DNA from: Patescibacteria group bacterium
GTDB lineage: Bacteria > Patescibacteriota > Minisyncoccia > Phycocordibacterales > UBA1550
Direction of reading: 5' to 3'
Length of the DNA: 64,000 nt
NCBI GenBank assembly: GCA_038057125.1
Contig: JBBUDU010000002.1
Location: forward strand, 85,240 to 149,239
In this document: piece after piece, positions 5,490-26,309 of the stretch
How the letters are laid out: each line of letters begins with the position of its first letter
How positions within the stretch are numbered: the stretch's first letter is position 1
Program-made: the position numbers and the translations under genes
The notes under the pieces: model-generated
Databases searched by the model: none
Seen by the model: the letters and a program-made list of their open reading frames with translations, nothing else
Told to the model about the DNA's origin: nothing

Positions 5490-8400
5490 CTAATATTCAA
5501 CAGTTAAGTTTCCCTTGTCCGTCATCAGCTTCAGAATCCTCAATCCTGTAAAAGTTTCTTTGACTCCGCTGGTGTCGTCATCTTCATTGTTATCATTGTT
5601 CCCTTTGATTTTCTTTTTAATTTTTGTGGTGTTTTTCTTCGCATCATAGTGTGCCTCAATTTTTAGGGTACCCACCGTCGTTTTTTGTTCAAGTTCTTTG
5701 AGGTTTCCCGACTTATCCACAGACCATTCGTATTTTAGTGTAGTTTTAGGAATTGTGCTCGTTAATACACCGTTATAGACAAGTCCACCCAGCTCCAGTT
5801 TAATTTCTTTTTTCCCTTGCTTATATTTACTGAAAATGATTTGAAGGGTATTGTCTGATTTGTCGGCAACAATCGTGCTCGTGGCAGTGGTTGAGACCAT
5901 GGTGGCGGAAAGATTGTCGGTGCCGATGATATTCAATTTTTGCGTAACTACATCAAAGGTTAGGGTCGCCTCGGGAGGCGTGGTGTCAAGGGTGATGGAA
6001 TTGTCGGCTCCAACAACGACACCGTATCCACCGGTAACTGGTATTTGACTCAATGGAACATTTTGCGCCAGCGGGATAGTAGTACTACCGGCAGTGAAAT
6101 CAAGGGAGTAGGTTTGGTCGGGAGTTGTACTTGCCATCGGAGAAATCTGTATACGGTAGGTGCCTTGTTTGAGGACGGGAGAGTAGGCAACATCCTCGGG
6201 GTAGCCCTGTGGGTCTATGTCTATCGTAGTATACATAAGATCACCGGATGACCGAATGTATTCTTCGTCGGTTGAAACGCCGGCAGTATCAGAAACACTA
6301 TTACCATCTGGGTCGGTAACAGAAAGGTGTATTGGTGAATGCTTGGTAATAGCCATGGCGATAGTGGCATTTTTGGGACGACCAAAGGCGACAAAACCTG
6401 AAACTTGTTTGTATGAATTTTTTAACTTGCCTTCAATTTTTTTACCTGGTTTTGGTGCGCTAACTACATCAAAGCCCCCGCTCTCACCAACATACATAGC
6501 CTCATGGTCAATACGCCCATTTCCATCCCAATCAAAAAATAACAAATCCCCAGGCTGCAAATCTGACTCTGCTACTGGCTGTACATTGTTGTAATATTGA
6601 TCATTCGCACTTTCATATTTAATAAAATTAGAGACAAAGTTTTTATGTGGATTATTTGATCGATTGTATGACCATCCAATTAAACCGGAACAATCAACAC
6701 CATCCCCTATCCCAAAATCTCCCTTCCCTGGCGCCTTGGCATCAGGATTCCAGTATTTGTAATTTGTCTTTACGGTATTAGTGTCAGTAAAAAGTCTGTT
6801 TGCAAAATCCCACCCTTTACCACCCCAAAGATAGTTCTGGTTTAACAACTCCTTTGCCAAGTCCGCTGCTTTTATATTTAAAGGTACCTTCACCTCAAAA
6901 TCTACATTCCCCACCACACCAAACTCCTGCCACGCACTCGTATTCCCCTTGTCGTCCACCGCTCGCGCGCGCCAGTGATACGCACCTTCAGGAATAGAAT
7001 TTTCTGTGGTGGTGGCAATACCTCCAGAAACAACGAAACTGCTTTCTAAAAGATTTGTTCCATCAAACAGTTGGCTTGATTCTTTTAATTCTACTTGGAG
7101 CTTAATGTGGTCATTGTCGATGTCGGAGAGAGTTGCTTCAAAAACAACTCTTTGTTCGGCAGTCATTACTCCTTCATTAATTGTAGTTACGCCGTCCGAT
7201 TTAAATTGCAAAATATTTGAAATTGTCGGTGGTTGATTGACGGGAACCTTCCACCCATCCTGTGTTATCCACGGCAAATTATCCTGGTCGCCGTAGAAAA
7301 CATACGGTGAATCACAGAAGTTGTCACTGTTTGCATCATTGCAACCCTCGACTGGCGTATCGTAATCGCTCCAATAGTTGCCACTGACTGGAGAAACAAG
7401 ATTGAATATGTTGCCACTGCCACCACTAACATAAGTCTGCGTGGAGTTATTGATAAAATTGTTATTATAGATTTGATTACCACTGGAATAATAGAAATGG
7501 ATTCCATAGTAATTATTTGACACAGTATTGCTGGTTATGGTGTTGCCACTGGAATAGGAAAGATAGGTTCCTAAATAATTATTAGATGTAGTGTTGTTGG
7601 TCAGGGTGTTATTATTACTGAAATAGTATAATTCAATTCCGGAAACATTATTTGATACATTGTTGTTGGTCAGCATATTGCCCATGGAAGAGTAGAAAAG
7701 TAGAATTCCTCTGCTGTTATTATTTAACGAAGTATTACTGGTCAGTGTGTTGCCACTGGAAGAGTAGAGGAAGATTCCGATGTTATTATTTGATAGGGTA
7801 GTGTTACTAGTCAGTGTGTTTCCAGTGGAAGATTCAAGGTAGATTCCATGGTAATTATTTGATAAAATGTTGTTGGCTATGGTATTCTTACTCGAAAAGT
7901 AAAGATAGATTCCGAATGAAAATTTTTTAATAATGAAGTTTCTGACAGTAACGCCAGTTCTTCCGTAAAGATAGACACCGGTTCCAGTATTGCTTCCTGT
8001 CAGAGTGTGGCCGTTGCCATCTAAGGTTACACTATCACTATCTATCTGAATGGTCTCGGTTAAATCTATATTAAGTGTGCAGGTTTTAGTAGTGATATCC
8101 CAATTACCGATGAGGTAACAATCGCCGCCAGTGGTGTCGTCTTTGATAAACTTGGTGCTGTGGCGTGGCTGGATGAAAATTACATGATTGGTTGATATAT
8201 CTTGTGTATATGAATATGCTCCACTACCGTCCGATTTGAATTCGGTTAGATTATGATAATTATCCTCATATCTATAGTATATGGTGCTTGGTTGGAAACC
8301 ATGAAGGGTTATTTGGGTTGAGGTGGAGGAAGTTGAAAAAGTGGGTGGCCATATCATCATAGTTACCATCTCGGGGACTGATTCCAGTTTTAATTTGACG

Positions 8401-17748: not shown

Positions 17749-18021
17749 ATGAACAAAGCAGCTATCGCTGAAATTATTCACGAGAAGATGGGAGGGACCA
17801 AAGTATCTGCAGAGCAGACACTTGACGCAATCCTTGAAGGGATGGTAAGCACCTTGAAGAAAGGTGGAGAAGTGTCAATCGCAGGACTCGGTATCTTTTC
17901 TACAAAGGCTCGCGCAGCCCGCACAGCGCGTAACCCAAAAACTGGTGAGGCTATTCAAGTAAAAGCAACAACAGTTCCAAAGTTTCGTGCCGCAAAGGCG
18001 CTCAAGGACGCAGTGAAGTAA
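17749..18021 (+). CDS. hup: DNA-binding protein HU
   Basis: 90 aa HU/IHF fold sequence (GLGIFSTKARAARTARNPKTGE). Confidence 0.9.
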   Translation: MNKAAIAEIIHEKMGGTKVSAEQTLDAILEGMVSTLKKGGEVSIAGLGIFSTKARAARTARNPKTGEAIQVKATTVPKFRAAKALKDAVK

Positions 18022-18039
18022 AGACTGCTACTCCAAAAG

Positions 18040-18075
18040 AAAACCGAGCCTCCTATGGAGGCTCGGTTTTCTTTT
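18040..18075 (+). terminator. rho-independent terminator after hup
   Basis: AAAACCGAGCCTCC-TAT-GGAGGCTCGGTTTT followed by CTTTT. Confidence 0.8.
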
Positions 18076-18078
18076 GGG

Positions 18079-18235
18079 TGCGGGATGGGCTCTCGGTCAC
18101 GAGTTACTAAGTGTGCTCGTGTGAGTACACACTGCGCGCACTAAGTACTCTCGACCCCGCCTCACTGTCGCAGAGCGACATGTTCCGGCTTTCGATTCTC
18201 CACGCAAGGCGCGCAGGCGTCTTGCTCATCCCGCA
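18079..18235. other. tRNA-end-bounded structured element, Gly locus unit A (157 nt)
   Basis: - Starts TGCGGGATGGG, the same as the 3' end of the tRNA-Gly(UCC) gene in plus coordinates.
- Ends ATCCCGCA, the inverted complement of that start.
- First 81 nt are identical to unit B.
- Contains a long imperfect hairpin and the blocks TCGGTCACGA, TCTCGACCCCG and CTTTCGATT. Confidence 0.6.
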
Positions 18236-18237
18236 CA

Positions 18238-18279
18238 ATGTAAAAATCCCCAGACCGAAACGGTTGGGGATTTTTACAT
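18238..18279. terminator. 15-bp-stem hairpin separating units A and B
   Basis: ATGTAAAAATCCCCA / TGGGGATTTTTACAT, symmetric with A/T runs on both sides. Confidence 0.55.
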
Positions 18280-18281
18280 TG

Positions 18282-18418
18282 TGCGGGATGGGCTCTCGGT
18301 CACGAGTTACTAAGTGTGCTCGTGTGAGTACACACTGCGCGCACTAAGTACTCTCGACCCCGGCTCGCCTCTTCGCTACGCTCAGTATGGCTCCGCCTTT
18401 CGATTCTCCCATCCCGCT
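18282..18418. other. tRNA-end-bounded structured element, Gly locus unit B (137 nt)
   Basis: The 5' GCGGGATGGG pairs with the 3' CCCATCCCGC. The right end TTCGATTCTCCCATCCCGC is an inverted copy of the tRNA-Gly(UCC) T-loop, T-stem and acceptor 3' strand. Confidence 0.6.
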
Positions 18419-18430
18419 ACAAAATGCAAC

Positions 18431-18456
18431 AACGCCGAAGTTTTCACTTCGGCGTT
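18431..18456 (-). terminator. hairpin immediately 3' of tRNA-Gly(UCC)
   Basis: AACGCCGAAGT / ACTTCGGCGTT stem. Confidence 0.5.
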
Positions 18457-18465
18457 GGCATTTTG

Positions 18466-18536
18466 TGCGGGATGGGAGAATCGAACTCCCGCCAAGAGTT
18501 TGGAAAACTCCTATTCTACCATTAAACTAATCCCGC
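18466..18536 (-). tRNA. tRNA-Gly (anticodon UCC)
   Basis: Hand-folded 71 nt: acceptor GCGGGAT/ATCCCGC, D arm GTTT-AATGGTA-GAAT, anticodon arm GGAGT-TTTCCAA-ACTCT, T arm GGGAG-TTCGATT-CTCCC. CCA is not encoded. Confidence 0.9.
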
Positions 18537-21517: not shown

Positions 21518-21576
21518 ATTACTTTACAGTATACACCACTAATGGAGAAAAATGATTGGTGACATGTGGAGAATTG

Positions 21577-21668
21577 TGCCCTCATGAGGAGTCTGCCAAG
21601 CGCTCGCTCGACCCGTTTTGTTAAACGGGTAAACCCGAGCTCACTTTCGACTCCTCGTTCGCGCTACA
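21577..21668. other. degenerate tRNA-end-derived element next to tRNA-Arg(CCG)
   Basis: Starts with a 17-nt copy (TGCCCTCATGAGGAGTC) of the tRNA-Arg(CCG) 3' end. Contains GCGCTCGCTCGACCC, a hairpin ACCCGTTT-TGTT-AAACGGGT, and an inverted T-loop copy TTTCGACTCCTC. There is no closing acceptor complement. Confidence 0.45.
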
Positions 21669-21712
21669 AAAACATACTCCAAAAATGCTTCGCATTTGTT
21701 TCGTTCTTTTTG

Positions 21713-21784
21713 TGCCCTCATGAGGAGTCGAACCTCAATTACAAGCTTCGGAAGCTTGTGTCCTATCCGTTGAACGATAAGGGC
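21713..21784 (-). tRNA. tRNA-Arg (anticodon CCG)
   Basis: Hand-folded 72 nt: acceptor GCCCTTA/TGAGGGC, anticodon arm CAAGC-TTCCGAA-GCTTG, T arm TGAGG-TTCGACT-CCTCA. Confidence 0.88.
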
Positions 21785-21835
21785 TTTTTGGTACTGTGGT
21801 CCGTTGTACCACGAGCGCAGGTTTGGAAAAGTAGA

Positions 21836-22950: not shown

Positions 22951-23123
22951 TGTCGGGGTGCCCTATGTCCAAGACAAGATTCTACTGAATCTGAATCCCC
23001 GCCTGCCACCGCCCAAAGTTACATAAGTAAAATACAACACCGCCATTTATATTCCAACTGTTTGTAGTATTGAAACTAACCCAATTTGCGGTTAGGCTTT
23101 GGCGGGCAGGGAACTCGGCCTAT
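22951..23123 (-). pseudogene. tRNA-Pro 3'-part pseudo-copy interrupted in the T-loop
   Basis: TGTCGGGGTGCC (22951-22962) and GAACTCGGCCTAT (23111-23123) are exact copies of 23259-23270 and 23278-23290. They are separated by 148 nt instead of 7 nt. Confidence 0.55.
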
Positions 23124-23260
23124 TTTGACGAGAGAGGAGCGTGTGGAAGTGTACCCACTTACACAACGTCCGAGCGATGTTAAAATATTGTACCCGTTAT
23201 ATCTAAATTTCTTATGGAAATTTCCACGGAAGCATCCAATGCTTCCGATTAAAAACTGTG

Positions 23261-23331
23261 TCGGGGTGCCGAGAATCGAACTCGGCCTATCTGCTCCCAA
23301 AGCAGACGTACTACCGATATACTACACCCCG
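23261..23331 (-). tRNA. tRNA-Pro (anticodon UGG)
   Basis: Hand-folded 71 nt: acceptor CGGGGTG/CACCCCG, anticodon arm TCTGC-TTTGGGA-GCAGA, T arm CCGAG-TTCGATT-CTCGG. Confidence 0.88.
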
Positions 23332-23344
23332 ACACAATTTTTAA

Positions 23345-23460
23345 TCCCAAAGCAGACGTACTACCGATATATAACTGAATACAATATATTCTGCGCTCGC
23401 TCGGAAATTAAAACTTGCTAGTTTTATTTCGCTCACTCGCTTGAATATACTACACCCCGA
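23345..23460 (-). pseudogene. tRNA-Pro 5'-half pseudo-copy with a 73-nt insertion in the D-loop
   Basis: A 27-nt exact copy (23345-23371 = 23295-23321) and a 16-nt exact copy (23445-23460 = 23317-23332). ATATA is present on both sides of the insert but only once in the intact gene. Confidence 0.6.
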
Positions 23461-23508: not shown

Positions 23509-23991
23509 CTATAGCACGATATTATCTAAAAATCTAATGCGCGCTCGTCGATTTTTTGCGTCAATCTCCACCGTAATAGCATCAAAAATCCATTCAGGCT
23601 CCCCTTTTGGGTACTTTTCAAGCAAGTAAACTTGAATTGTCCGTGCCAGTCTCTTCAGTTTATGCTGGTGAATGTTATCTTCTGGTCGATAACTGTCCGT
23701 TACTGAATTAGCAAATTCTGAGTCAGCAGACTTCACGCCTGGGGCGCAGACCCTTGGGCGCAGGGAAACATTCACCTTATTACATAGGTCCGACCTATGT
23801 AAATTTTCACGTGAAACACTTTTTACCTCAATAAAATGGAGGATTTTACCTTTTTTGGCAATAATATCGATTTCCCCACATTTTTTAAGATAATTTTGCC
23901 CAATTACTAAAAACCCCTTATTTTGTAAGTATTTTACGGCAATATCCTCCCCCAAACGCCCTATTTTCTGCTTTTCTGTAGGTTCAGCCAT
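23509..23991 (-). CDS. yraN: YraN-family (UPF0102) endonuclease-like protein with ~35-aa internal extra segment
   Basis: GRLGEDIAVKYL...CGEIDIIAKKGKILHFIEVKS ... FDAITVEID. The track start is a TTG; the ATG at 23991 is preferred. Confidence 0.75.
   Translation of the reverse strand: MAEPTEKQKIGRLGEDIAVKYLQNKGFLVIGQNYLKKCGEIDIIAKKGKILHFIEVKSVSRENLHRSDLCNKVNVSLRPRVCAPGVKSADSEFANSVTDSYRPEDNIHQHKLKRLARTIQVYLLEKYPKGEPEWIFDAITVEIDAKNRRARIRFLDNIVL
23803..23818. promoter_or_regulatory. parS-like site (14/16 to TGTTTCACGTGAAACA) inside yraN
   Basis: ATTTTCACGTGAAACA; its palindromic core encodes VSRE in the yraN frame. Confidence 0.4.
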
Positions 23992-24038
23992 TACTACACA
24001 ATTATACCCAATGTTCAATGATTAACATAAAAAGAGTG

Positions 24039-24054
24039 TATTTCACGTGAAACA
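24039..24054. promoter_or_regulatory. parS-like site (15/16 to consensus)
   Basis: TATTTCACGTGAAACA, intergenic, upstream of yraN. Confidence 0.6.
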
Positions 24055-24359
24055 CCTCGTTTTTAGACTATATTTAGGTCGAAAACAAGCATTTTTCTAA
24101 AAACTCCATATTTATCAAGGGTTTCTTGGGTTTTAGGTGACAATTTTCCAATGTCTTGAATCTTAGTCTACTGGCTTTTTATGTCCTTTATCAACAGTAT
24201 CCACATAGTTATCCACAGTTTTGAGCTTTTTTCCCCATATTTTCCCGCTTCTGACCGTTGACAGGCTGTGTCAGAATAGTGGTTTTTGTGAAAAATGTCC
24301 TTTACAAAAAACTTATTGTACTGGTGCGGCTCTCGATAACGAACAATTGATTTTTTATT

Positions 24360-24433
24360 TGGTGCGGGTACGGAGAATCGAACTCCGATCTCGTCCTTGG
24401 CAAGGACGCGTTCTACCACTAAACCATACCCGC
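24360..24433 (-). tRNA. tRNA-Gly (anticodon GCC), CCA encoded
   Basis: Hand-folded: acceptor GCGGGTA/TACCCGC, anticodon arm CGTCC-TTGCCAA-GGACG, T arm CGGAG-TTCGATT-CTCCG, 3' ACCA. Confidence 0.9.
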
Positions 24434-24477
24434 AAACTTTCTCAACCATTATACATTTTTTTTATCTTTTTGGAAGA

Positions 24478-24618
24478 GCGCCCGGAGGGATCGGTCACGA
24501 ATATTTTTCTTGTCGTCACAAGAAAAATTTCTCGACCCCGACTCGCCCGTTTTTTCTGCTGAAAAAACATGGCTCCGTCTTTCGATTTACTCACGCGAGC
24601 TTTGCTCGCTCGGGCGCA
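24478..24618. other. tRNA-end-bounded structured element, Arg(UCG) locus (141 nt)
   Basis: The 5' GCGCCCG... pairs with ...CGGGCGC at the 3' end; these are direct and inverted copies of the tRNA-Arg(UCG) 3' end. It shares the blocks TCGGTCACGA, TCTCGACCCCG, CTCGCC, ATGGCTCCG and CTTTCGATT with Gly unit B. The hairpins between the blocks differ in sequence. Confidence 0.6.
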
Positions 24619-24620
24619 GA

Positions 24621-24654
24621 AATAATAAAAACCCCATCAGGGGTTTTTATTATT
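24621..24654 (-). terminator. hairpin between tRNA-Arg(UCG) and the element
   Basis: AATAATAAAAACCCC-ATCA-GGGGTTTTTATTATT. Confidence 0.6.
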
Positions 24655-24656
24655 TG

Positions 24657-24729
24657 TGCGCCCGGAGGGAATCGAACCCCCAACCCCTTGGTTCGAAGCC
24701 AAGTACTCTATCCGTTGAGCTACGGGCGC
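24657..24729 (-). tRNA. tRNA-Arg (anticodon UCG)
   Basis: Hand-folded 73 nt: acceptor GCGCCCG/CGGGCGC, anticodon arm CTTGG-CTTCGAA-CCAAG, T arm GGGGG-TTCGATT-CCCTC. Confidence 0.9.
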
Positions 24730-24818
24730 AAAAATTTGACAGGTTTCTCGTGAAACCTACACAGAGAGCATACCGCAAATTGGTAAAAAAGCCAAAAATA
24801 CACTAGACTATAACCTAT

Positions 24819-26309
24819 ATGATAGGCGCTTCAATAAAAACGAATATCTCGTACAAAATCCCTAAAGAAGTTTCACATGTAACCGAAACCTTGCGAAATG
24901 CAGGGTTTGAGGCGTATCTTGTGGGTGGATGCGTGCGCGACATCTTGCAGGAAATCAAGCCAAAAGACTGGGACGCAACAACAAACGCAACACCGGAACA
25001 AATCCAAGCCCTTTTTGAAAATTCTTTTTACGAAAACGATTACGGAACAGTTGGTATAGTAAATGAAACAGATGATGAAACACTTAAGGTTGTTGAAGTA
25101 ACTCCGTACCGAAGCGAAGGCGCATACACTGACAAGCGACGCCCGGATAGCGTTTCGTTTCACGGGAAACTAGACGAGGATCTAAAACGTCGCGATTTCA
25201 CAATTAACGCAATAGCGTATGATGAATCTAAAGGACATCTAACGGACATGTTTGGTGGTATAAAGGACATAAAGGACAAAGTCTTAAGGACAGTAGGGGA
25301 TCCAAGAGAACGCTTCAACGAAGATGCCCTCCGTGTCCTTCGCGCCGTGCGCCTTGCTACCGATCTTGGTTTCACGATTGAGATAGAGACTCAAAATGCA
25401 CTCACTGAAAAAGCTTCAGACCTGAAACATGTCTCTATGGAGCGTATTCGTGATGAATTCACCAAAATGGTAATGACAAAAAATCCAATGGTTGGCATTG
25501 TAATGTGCCAGAAACTTGGCATCCTTAAATATATTGCGCCGGATATCGAACGTGGGATTGGCATTGAGCAAAATGGCGACCATATTTACACCGTATGGGA
25601 ACACAACCTCCGCGCGCTCCAGCACTCGGCAGACCGTGGATGGCCGCTCCATGTACGACTCGGAGCGCTCTTTCATGATGTTTCAAAACCGGAAACACGA
25701 CGCTGGTCTCCCGAAAAAGACGACTGGACCTTTTATGGTCACGACGTAGTTGGCGGACGTGTTGCAAAAAAAGCTCTGGAAAATTTAAAATATCCTAAAA
25801 AAATCGTTGAGGTTGTGTCCGCGCTTGTGCGTTATCATTTGTTTTTCTCTGATATCGAAAAAATTACGCTTTCTGCGGTACGTCGTATTGTAAAAAACGT
25901 CGGACCTGACAATGTTTGGGACTTGATGAAAGTTCGAGCGTGCGACCGTATCGGCATGGGTCGTCCAAAAGAAGCGCCGTATCGTTTGCGTAAATATGAA
26001 TCAATGATTGATGAGGCGATGCGCGCGCCGGTGTCTGTGGGAATGCTCAAAATTGACGGGCAAAAAATAATGGAAGTTACCCATGAAACACCGGGGCCAA
26101 AACTCGGTTTTATCCTCCACGCGCTCCTCGAAGAAGTGCTTGATGACCCGGAGCGCAACACGGAAGTTTTTCTCGTGAAACGAACACTCGAACTCGCAAA
26201 ACTTCCGATTGATGAATTAAAAAAACTGGGGGAGGAAGGTAAGGAGAAAAAAGAAGAGGAAGAGGAAAAAGAGCTCGCTGTGATTCGCAAGCGTCATGGA
26301 GTAAAGTAA
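24819..26309 (+). CDS. cca: CCA-adding enzyme / poly(A) polymerase family nucleotidyltransferase with HD domain
   Basis: LVGGCVRD, RRDFTINA, HD motif FHDVSKP. Lys/Glu-rich C-terminal tail. Confidence 0.88.
   Translation: MIGASIKTNISYKIPKEVSHVTETLRNAGFEAYLVGGCVRDILQEIKPKDWDATTNATPEQIQALFENSFYENDYGTVGIVNETDDETLKVVEVTPYRSEGAYTDKRRPDSVSFHGKLDEDLKRRDFTINAIAYDESKGHLTDMFGGIKDIKDKVLRTVGDPRERFNEDALRVLRAVRLATDLGFTIEIETQNALTEKASDLKHVSMERIRDEFTKMVMTKNPMVGIVMCQKLGILKYIAPDIERGIGIEQNGDHIYTVWEHNLRALQHSADRGWPLHVRLGALFHDVSKPETRRWSPEKDDWTFYGHDVVGGRVAKKALENLKYPKKIVEVVSALVRYHLFFSDIEKITLSAVRRIVKNVGPDNVWDLMKVRACDRIGMGRPKEAPYRLRKYESMIDEAMRAPVSVGMLKIDGQKIMEVTHETPGPKLGFILHALLEEVLDDPERNTEVFLVKRTLELAKLPIDELKKLGEEGKEKKEEEEEKELAVIRKRHGVK

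Follow-up and report, generated by a model that had tools for sequence, protein, structure and literature searches.

Behind the gene of a glycine transfer RNA (tRNA), tRNA-Gly(UCC), in a 64,000-nucleotide (nt) stretch of a Patescibacteria group bacterium (contig JBBUDU010000002.1; "the window" below, with coordinates on its plus strand), two short structured units were found. They belong to a phylum-wide family of non-coding, tightly folded cassettes, apparently undescribed so far, that lie behind the tRNA and transfer-messenger RNA (tmRNA) genes of Patescibacteria. The ends of a cassette are an inverted and a direct copy of the 3' end of the neighbouring gene. We tentatively read the units as non-coding insertion cassettes at tRNA/tmRNA 3' ends that depend on a factor in trans and take their ends from the target, a reading to which we give a little less than an even chance.

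The Units of the Window

The window holds three full units and one decayed unit, all of them 3' of a tRNA gene and in identical orientation, that of the minus-strand tRNAs. A first-pass annotation, made from the letters of the window, had described the two units behind tRNA-Gly(UCC) (unit B, next to the tRNA, and unit A beyond it) as structured elements closed by a mimic of the tRNA acceptor stem, and what it said of the letters was borne out. Both units and the tRNA 3' end share the string TGCGGGATGGG (at 18079, 18282 and 18466). Unit B closes with CCCATCCCGC at 18408-18417 and its right end, TTCGATTCTCCCATCCCGC (18399-18417), is the inverted T-loop, T-stem and acceptor strand of the tRNA; unit A closes with CATCCCGCA at 18227-18235, with arms of 13 nt that include one G.T. 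The first parts of the two units are indeed common, with a single difference in the first 86 nt and an identical run of 70 nt (0 matches in shuffles), and CTTTCGATT is kept in both. As had been stated, strong hairpins separate the units, and the one next to the tRNA (H1) is terminator-like on both strands. The units are also not a tRNA, a tmRNA or a known RNA as far as ARAGORN and Rfam can tell: the two programs find five true tRNAs and nothing over the units. The units fold much better than their shuffles (z -4.6 to -6.6). The count of four copies agrees with a covariance model, described below, which gave 72-82 bits for three of them and 13.5 bits for the fourth, and which found nothing else over the whole 64 kb.

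A Family in Patescibacteria

Search motifs were taken from the three full copies (TCGGTCACGA, TCTCGACCCCG and CTTTCGA), which are separated by hairpins of unrelated sequence, and an exact motif scan over one genome per GTDB species gave at least 120 loci. Among the scan matches listed there were about 92 true units, and all of the named ones came from Patescibacteria: Saccharibacteria, Paceibacteria with Kaiser-, Wolfe-, Yonath-, Taylor-, Lloyd-, Nomura- and Zambryskibacteria, and Moraniibacteriota. The listed motif matches outside Patescibacteria were intragenic and had no P2 hairpin (see below), and no match from another phylum in loci L001-L100 was recovered among the covariance-model matches. 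The covariance model was built from 69 units and added extra copies within the fetched loci; with the pattern scan and nhmmer the total came to 123 units in 97 loci. The first-pass annotation had proposed such a model as a way to look for further copies and to see whether they always lie 3' of a tRNA. The copies exist, and the named ones are all from Patescibacteria. Their placement held in large part: 89 of the 123 units are found 3' of a tRNA or tmRNA gene at no more than 130 nt, 4 come after another unit, for 6 the tRNA is 131-500 nt off with other cassettes between, and 11 are at the edge of a locus, but no tRNA was detected for 13.

The orientation of the units relative to the tRNA is constant, more than 30 anticodons are covered, and tmRNA genes are also among the unit-bearing genes. 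Roughly half of the tRNA/tmRNA genes in the sampled loci carry at least one cassette, a figure biased by the choice of each locus for having a unit, and many tRNAs in unit-bearing genomes have none. The orientation of the downstream gene did not differ between tRNAs with and without a unit, and no preference for convergent genes was seen.

No description of such a cassette family was met in the literature searched. The covariance models of Rfam 15 gave no match at gathering score, and at E values up to 5 merely hairpin noise from microRNA models. Group I introns are common in tRNA genes of Patescibacteria, and a recent study deals with those in the anticodon loop (PMC13011429). The inserts of 198-381 nt that ARAGORN called in the anticodon loops of tRNA-Met, tRNA-Asn and tRNA-Thr genes of L003, L048, L087 and L107 fit such introns (PMC13011429), and these tRNAs carry units too. 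Solo units with no detected tRNA (L115 at about 1186, L110 at about 2282, L005, L067 and L012) have on the tRNA side a T-loop-like GGTTCGAG, after which the sequence is no longer that of a tRNA (for example GGTTCGAGCAAAGGCTAATATATCACCGCA); there was no Rfam match, and these could be disrupted tRNAs or another RNA gene. A LOOT RNA (RF03000, 64.5 bits) was found at 3852-3985 of L002, a Saccharibacteria contig.

Conserved Fold

On the tRNA strand, the order of parts is the tRNA, a spacer hairpin (H), the inverted acceptor 3' strand, a hairpin P4, the inverted T-stem and T-loop, (A)AG, a hairpin P3, GGGG, a hairpin P2 and finally the direct copy of C56-N73. P4 is optional, typically 25 nt long, and sits at the border of acceptor and T-stem in the inverted copy. 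The base of P3 is GNC/GNC with an internal loop GGA/GA, and P2 has the form GUC-GA-GAG ... CUC-GU-GAC. The direct and the inverted tRNA copies pair with each other (P1) and thereby close a three-way junction.

The fold is under purifying selection. In an alignment of 69 sequences, compared with shuffles and with slid partners, 89.8% of the cells assigned to pairs were paired, against 71.4% in shuffles, and both sides had changed in 432 cells against 158, although the hairpins fall into few subtypes and the independent events are fewer than the cells. The covariation score was 0.461, as compared with 0.134 in shuffles and at most 0.12 in the slid controls. One P3 pair is C-G in 24 sequences, A-U in 23, G-C in 17 and U-A in 2, and the first four variable pairs of P2 are Watson-Crick in 69 of 69 sequences with 2-4 pair types each.

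The variable helices had G.U in 45 and A.C in 47 of about 1,250 cells, so there is no excess of G.U, and the mismatches between tRNA end and inverted copy show no bias. For these two reasons the data suggest that Watson-Crick pairing itself is constrained, as would be the case for DNA hairpins or if both strands are important. As a guide to the strand that folds, the G.U and A.C counts are uninformative.

What closes the fold throughout the family is a helix of the T-stem part with paired T-loop bases. T-loop bases 56-60 pair with the inverted copy and the helix then opens into the P2/P3 junction, so that no T-loop caps it. The acceptor-stem closing helix proposed in the first-pass annotation is present in the copies of the window, with 10 bp in unit B, 13-nt arms with one G.T in unit A and 7 bp in the unit behind tRNA-Arg(UCG), and it does not extend to the family: acceptor-derived ends form a closing helix of 7 bp or more in 16% of 67 units, as compared with 10% of shuffles. 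The Gly lineage of the window has a damaged T part, and closure of the fold falls to the acceptor part.

Ends and the Neighbouring tRNA

To compare the ends with the neighbouring gene, a strict, ungapped test was applied to 63 units, each against its own tRNA and against other tRNAs. Over the T part (N59-65) the proximal, inverted copy agreed with its own tRNA at 5.9 of 7 positions and with other tRNAs at 3.8, and the distal, direct copy at 5.6 as compared with 3.6. The acceptor part (66-73) was matched at 7 or more of 8 positions by the distal copy in 49% of the units (8 of 8 in 25 units) and by the proximal copy in 27%, against 1.3% and 2.1%, respectively, with other tRNAs. Complete direct repeats end at N73/C74. 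Two unit-bearing tRNAs have a TTCAA T-loop, and their units have the junctions TTGAA(AG) and GUGAC-CAA, not TCGAA(AG) and CGA; therefore the apparent "TCGA" motif at both junctions is itself a tRNA copy, at least to position 57. Units are rarer at TTCAA tRNAs (2 of 86 versus 14 of 89, Fisher p = 0.003).

The same was seen in orthologues. At syntenic loci, where RNase Y is 85% identical, a derived GCTCTCGG that replaces the T-loop copy is common to the Gly(UCC) units, and their ends nevertheless follow the local acceptor (window, GCGGGAT; L121, GCGGGTG; L124, GCGGGTA). The ends thus track the neighbouring tRNA, both in the T part and in the acceptor part, a behaviour whose absence, according to the first-pass annotation, would have argued against its minihelix proposal.

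Three other treatments of the ends were dropped. A permissive gapped alignment of arms and tRNAs (89%; 290 versus 7) gave 0.78 with random tRNAs and was replaced by the strict test. The unit is not a tandem tRNA duplicate with an insertion in the T-loop, because the proximal arm is a reverse complement (AATCGAA, ACTCGAA, AGTTGAA) and not a copy. A primer-binding site was also rejected, since no TGG (the complement of CCA) stands before the arm except where the gene encodes CCA.

Gain, Loss and Exchange between Strains

Gain and loss concern the cassette as a discrete unit, whose bounds are set by an 18-nt direct repeat that reaches from T-loop to discriminator. The RNase Y proteins of L126 and L127 are the same and the flanks nearly so, and a 177-bp cassette is present in L126 and absent from L127. 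In L126 the direct repeat of the cassette, TGCGGGATGGGGGAATCG (C56-N73), is perfect over 18 nt, and the inverted copy measures 19 nt. The hairpin of this cassette is homologous to H1 of the window, with compensatory changes, and the cassette is therefore old. In the empty sites L122 and L123 the terminator of the HU gene directly adjoins tRNA-Gly(UCC). L130 shares the same RNase Y with the window and lacks 203 bp that lie between two 86-nt repeats there; unit B is its sole unit at this Gly(UCC) site. Copy number is 0, 1 or 2 among near-identical strains, and decayed copies are common.

L130 also carries a different, intact allele of tRNA-Arg(CCG) (5700-5790), with no unit there. The 17 nt at 21803-21819 of the window (GTTGTACCACGAGCGCA) are the 5' end of an allele of the L130 type. 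This remnant adjoins a block made of a leader, a new tRNA-Arg(CCG), a hairpin, a unit and its distal copy, and most of the old gene has been replaced.

Cassettes also stack: tandem runs of 2-3, including other core families with the same ends, were found in L011, L016, L025, L026, L056 and L129. A second cassette family (6205-7600 of L129, and the flank of tRNA-Gly(UCC) in L016) has the form GGAGA-CGCTTCGCTATCTCACTCC...GGAAAC... and tRNA-derived ends of the same kind. L129 has about 1.3 kb with small open reading frames (ORFs) between 12-nt repeats of the tRNA-Gly 3' end, and L121 and L124 have one small gene each between HU and the unit.

Related cores recur beside different genes, and their ends always match the local tRNA as far as T-loop position 57. 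Of 72 unit pairs with a core similarity of at least 75%, a lenient threshold, 65 are beside different genes, and the best pairs are clear. The cores of tmRNA and tRNA-Gly units are 89% similar, and tRNA-Asn and tRNA-Gly units have nearly the same P4 and core with tRNA-specific sequence on both sides of P4, a pattern that simple recombination at conserved motifs cannot easily yield. Copies from a single genome are unlike one another, and each of them looks like units found in other genomes. Purifying selection acts on the core where it stands: between the window and L124 the Gly units share 90% identity and show two compensatory pair changes, whereas the intergenic DNA beside them is unalignable.

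Two unrelated alleles of tRNA-Arg(UCG) were observed at one syntenic position (24656-24729 of the window, 16953-17025 of L122 and 18465-18538 of L124). One type is that of the window and L121, the other that of L122 and L124, and each type has its own matching, partly decayed unit.

Layout of the Window

The features of the window are listed in Table 1. Three different strong hairpins separate tRNA-Gly(UCC), unit B, unit A and the HU gene. The HU terminator is the original flank of tRNA-Gly(UCC), since displaced by two cassettes, because it directly abuts the tRNA in the empty sites L122/L123 and L127. With its flanking copies, H1 forms a long palindrome (32-nt arms, 81% complementary), and H1 scores as an intrinsic terminator (a GC-rich hairpin with a T run after it) on both strands. 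A T run follows the spacer hairpin in 25 of 67 loci, by a crude test too coarse to settle the direction of the hairpin. No promoter-like site was found ahead of unit A or unit B, and unit B has no P4 hairpin. The units of tRNA-Arg(UCG) and tRNA-Arg(CCG) open with the reverse complement of the 3' end of their own tRNA, over 13 and 19 nt, respectively; in the decayed unit this direct copy, TGTGCCCTCATGAGGAGTC, recurs at 21711-21729. Weak covariance-model matches occur in L121 and L124 at the position of the remnant behind tRNA-Gly(GCC).

Table 1. Units, spacers and neighbouring features in the 64,000-nt window (CM, covariance model).
Feature	Position	Strand	Remarks
HU gene	17749-18021		
HU bidirectional terminator	18033-18077		
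Unit A	18079-18235	-	CM 72 bits (18082-18207)
Unit A, direct copy	18079-18089		
Unit A, P2	18095-18156		
Unit A, P3	18159-18188		
Unit A, T-loop/T-stem copy	18191-18201		
Unit A, P4 hairpin	18202-18226		
Unit A, acceptor copy	18227-18235		
Spacer hairpin H2, units A/B	18236-18281		29-nt arms, 97% complementary, flanking acceptor copies counted
Unit B	18282-18418	-	CM 76 bits (18285-18415); folding z -6.2
Unit B, direct copy of tRNA 3' end	18282-18292		
Unit B, P2	18298-18359		
Unit B, P3	18362-18396		
Unit B, inverted copy of T54-C72	18399-18417		
Spacer hairpin H1, tRNA-Gly(UCC)/unit B	18419-18464		Terminator-like, both strands
tRNA-Gly(UCC)	18465/6-18536	-	ARAGORN; Rfam RF00005, 69 bits; 3' end C56-N73 copied into units
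Decayed unit, spacer and tRNA-Arg(CCG) block	21575-21784	-	Unit 21575-21670 (CM 13.5 bits, E 0.09, 21581-21662); tRNA 21712-21784
Remnant of unit distal end (GGTGCGGCTCTCGATAACGA), 3' of tRNA-Gly(GCC)	24323-24342	-	
Unit 3' of tRNA-Arg(UCG)	24478-24617	-	CM 82 bits (24480-24598)
Arg(UCG) unit, direct copy	24478-24490		13 nt
Arg(UCG) unit, P2	24493-24537		
Arg(UCG) unit, P3	about 24541-24578		
Arg(UCG) unit, TTCGATT	24581-24587		
Arg(UCG) unit, P4	24593-24610		
Arg(UCG) unit, acceptor copy	24611-24617		
Arg(UCG) spacer hairpin	24619-24655	-	
tRNA-Arg(UCG)	24656-24729	-	

Some further features of the window were noted. A 308-bp insert (22951-23270) lies 3' of tRNA-Pro(UGG), flanked by a 12-nt repeat, TGTCGGGGTGCC (22951 and 23259), and is missing from the syntenic site in L121, L122 and L124. 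Its core differs from that of the units, with a long hairpin at about 23000-23110 and an internal 13-nt tRNA copy (23111-23123 = 23278-23290). Upstream of tRNA-Pro, at 23345-23460, there is a second copy of the 5' half of tRNA-Pro (23345-23371 = 23295-23321; 23448-23460 = 23320-23332), with the D-loop split by about 76 nt of unrelated sequence. The palindrome TTTCACGTGAAA, with one mismatch allowed, occurs nine times in 2.4 kb (23804-26181) as compared with 0.46 times in shuffles; the sites surround yraN, tRNAs and cca and may be an operator or promoter motif. The YraN/UPF0102 ORF (23509-24018, 169 aa) matches the first 47 of 80 profile positions through residues 23-73 only, and the gene may have suffered an insertion or disruption.

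Comparison with Known Elements

In the definition used for tRNA-gene islands, the target gene is regenerated and its displaced 3' fragment marks the far end as a direct repeat (PMC4383910). The cassettes have such a repeat, of 11-19 nt in the window, perfect over the 18 nt C56-N73 in the comparison of L126 with L127, and recognizable as a distal copy with at least 7 of 8 matches in 49% of the units. They contain no integrase; the neighbouring genes are housekeeping genes and no linked family recurs. The cassettes are thus like tRNA/tmRNA islands, prophages and derivatives of the cis-mobilizable element (CIME) type in their 3' site, regenerated gene, direct repeat starting in the T-loop and tandem accretion. 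They differ from integrase islands in having 100-200 bp, no integrase, a single family for more than 30 tRNAs, an additional inverted target copy and a conserved, covarying three-way junction. The T-loop is reportedly a known crossover sublocation, as described by Williams in 2002.

The attC sites of integrons and the attP site of CTX-phi, which mimics dif and uses the host XerCD, are recombination sites that act as folded single strands. The cassettes resemble them in being non-coding and defined by structure, in a hairpin that imitates a double-stranded target, in an enzyme that need not adjoin, in forming arrays, and in pairing that is Watson-Crick only. However, they lack the R/L core boxes of attC (RYYYAAC ... 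GTTRRRY) and any dif-like sequence, have no IntI or other recombinase nearby, and have a core whose sequence is strongly conserved; their target is the T-loop of a tRNA, from which the junctions NN-TCGAA and CGA-NN derive. Repetitive extragenic palindromes and bacterial interspersed mosaic elements (REP/BIME), as well as the palindrome-associated transposable elements (PATEs) of IS200/IS605, are mobilised in trans by a single-copy Y1 (HUH) transposase encoded elsewhere. These too are short, non-coding, hairpin-rich and intergenic, with a fixed orientation and a structure conserved on one strand, but they have their own ends and make no target duplication, whereas the cassettes have an 18-nt direct repeat and target-derived ends. 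The units do not look like miniature inverted-repeat transposable elements: their inverted ends are local tRNA copies, and the copies within a genome are dissimilar.

Some RNAs offer likenesses as well. TRNA-like RNAs can be cut from longer transcripts by tRNA-processing enzymes, as is the case for mascRNA from MALAT1 (PMC8457004) and the Y RNA YrlA (bioRxiv 10.1101/312249). Like these, the cassettes have a helix that imitates the acceptor and T arm and could be released by RNase P and RNase Z. In contrast, mascRNA and YrlA keep the T-loop and the elbow and copy no neighbour; the cassettes copy the neighbour exactly, their T-loop is replaced and the acceptor helix is often absent. As with the internal guide sequence and P1-P10 of group I introns, or the guides that pair exon- and intron-binding sites in group II introns, an internal sequence of the cassette covaries with the flanking host gene at each site. 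Unlike introns, the unit is located outside a mature tRNA that needs no splicing to be complete, and it has no intron core and no Rfam intron match.

Discussion

The first-pass annotation had left two explanations side by side: a small RNA whose closing helix mimics a tRNA minihelix, and relics of a mobile element that targets tRNA 3' ends. The former fits the three full copies of the window and is not general, because the acceptor-like helix stands at 16% against 10% in shuffles, a three-way junction replaces the T-loop, and the units have terminator-like hairpins and no promoter-like site ahead of them. The latter is closer to the evidence, with insertions and deletions between strains, tandem stacks, tmRNA targets and cores beside different tRNAs; "relics" is the wrong word, because the core is conserved phylum-wide, covaries, and is kept in place while neighbouring intergenic DNA turns unalignable.

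Insertion cassettes are ranked first here because the regenerated tRNA, the displaced 3' fragment, the tmRNA targets, the tandem accretion and the exact differences between strains match the mark left by integration into tRNA genes. Such a cassette would enter at the T-loop by strand exchange or copying and take its end sequences from the target gene. Insertion would bring or leave a hairpin, so that the tRNA stays intact, and this spacer hairpin could serve as its terminator. A factor encoded elsewhere in the genome would recognise the folded core, which may form on the tRNA-sense strand as single-stranded DNA or RNA, and cassettes may be lost by recombination or slippage between the direct repeats.

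Several observations weigh against insertion cassettes. The difference between L126 and L127 is most simply a precise deletion in L127, and no fresh insertion was caught. Near-identical copies at different tRNAs of one genome were not seen, which gives no sign of a recent burst. The 75% threshold for similar cores is lenient, about half of the core being invariant motif. Conservation in place fits a functional RNA equally well, and it is only the tRNA-sense strand that has purine-rich conserved unpaired bases and, in P2, an invariant G.U. No enzyme gene is linked to the cassettes either. The cassettes, at 100-200 bp, have no room for an ORF; the genes around them in the window (tig, clpP, rny, hup, a two-component system, a cation-efflux gene, yraN and cca) include no integrase, transposase or reverse transcriptase; clustering of the ORFs of 95 loci gave no recurrent linked family, the best cluster being a housekeeping one in 10 of the 95; and the box II motif of tyrosine recombinases was found in 0 of 894 ORFs, by a crude test confined to the unit loci. 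Phage, plasmid and IMG/VR collections gave no match by pattern scan (of IMG/VR) or blastn. To our knowledge, no mechanism writes direct and inverted copies of a target onto an incoming element.

We consider a functional tRNA-like small RNA an unlikely but live competitor. Read-through of the spacer hairpin would be followed by an RNase P cut at the 5' side of the acceptor-like strand and by RNase Z and the CCA enzyme after the discriminator, and the product would act through the conserved three-way junction, for example as a protein-binding RNA, decoy or scaffold. That the units are always co-oriented with the tRNA, and that P4 sits between acceptor position 7 and T-stem position 49, where the D/anticodon domain leaves a tRNA, in the tRNA sense only, would follow naturally from it. 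The purine-rich junctions and loops (AAA, GGGG, GGA/GA, GA/GU) and the invariant G.U also speak for an RNA, but the variable helices have no excess of G.U. The tRNA-sense strand is the more stable in 92 of 92 cores, which amounts to one observation, as this is largely the invariant motif demanded by the search pattern. The direct copy ends at N73/C74, the RNase Z boundary, yet the T-loop by which RNase P, RNase Z and the CCA enzyme measure a minihelix is replaced by a helix extension and a junction, and the acceptor-like closing helices of 7-13 bp in the window are, as described above, not general in the family. A terminator-like hairpin stands ahead of each unit with no promoter-like site. 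Although the core is kept in place with compensatory changes, near-identical strains have 0, 1 or 2 copies and decayed copies are common, and such a trans-acting RNA is given no reason to copy its neighbour.

That the units act in cis as the 3' flank of the tRNA is improbable. The inverted copy would pair with the tRNA 3' end in a read-through transcript or in single-stranded DNA and extend the hairpin to about 30 bp, which would control termination, 3' maturation or precursor decay (e.g., as an RNase III substrate), with the core and distal copy as an alternative partner. Palindromes with 32- and 29-nt arms that take in the tRNA end, an inverted T part that tracks the local tRNA, and ends that change with the tRNA in orthologues are what it predicts; the second unit of a tandem array, however, has no tRNA to act on, the inverted acceptor part is intact in just 27% of the units, and a phylum-wide three-way junction exceeds what a pairing partner needs. 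Many tRNAs of the same genomes do without a unit, and the downstream genes are oriented no differently. Still a little less probable are ordinary att-site remnants, that is, attP arms left by internal deletion of integrase islands or prophages at tRNA/tmRNA T-loops. A regenerated target, a displaced repeat from T-loop to 3' end and a tmRNA target are the classical island signature (PMC4383910), and gene-bearing inserts with the same repeats exist (the 1.3 kb of ORF DNA in L129, and the 308-bp tRNA-Pro insert of the window). Yet no integrase was found beside any of about 95 loci, the phage and plasmid collections gave no match, and more than 30 tRNAs share one sequence family whose ends match each of them anew; covariation in hairpins is unexpected for double-stranded protein-binding arms, and the core is conserved in place.

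Insertion cassettes with target-derived ends would have a wider form, which we regard as rather unlikely: a novel type of non-autonomous element, which at every insertion would have its terminal helix written from the target. It could be a single-stranded "dumbbell" circle of about 190 nt, made of the copy of the tRNA 3' end, a hairpin, the inverted copy and the three-way junction, whose stem would imitate the double-stranded end of a tRNA gene and which a host-encoded enzyme would exchange into the T-loop of any tRNA or tmRNA. An equivalent form would be an integron-like cassette platform on tRNA genes that may also take up small genes, such as those of L121, L124 and L129. We know of no precedent for the small size, the missing enzyme gene, one structured core at all tRNAs, or ends re-matched in both orientations.

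Patescibacteria genomes are among the smallest bacterial ones, and yet they carry cassettes of 100-200 bp behind many of the tRNA and tmRNA genes in the sampled loci. If the cassettes are mobile, every tRNA gene could be targeted and left intact by an element that has no gene of its own and adapts its ends to the target, which would be new for the biology of mobile elements and possibly of use for programmable insertion. If they are RNAs, they would be a large, undescribed class of tRNA-linked structured RNAs in a phylum from which hardly any small RNAs are known; a transcriptome paper states that TM7x has no validated ones. In both cases, the cassettes explain the recurrent repeats of tRNA fragments, should be masked or annotated in Patescibacteria assemblies, and mark hot spots at which tRNA alleles and small genes are swapped.

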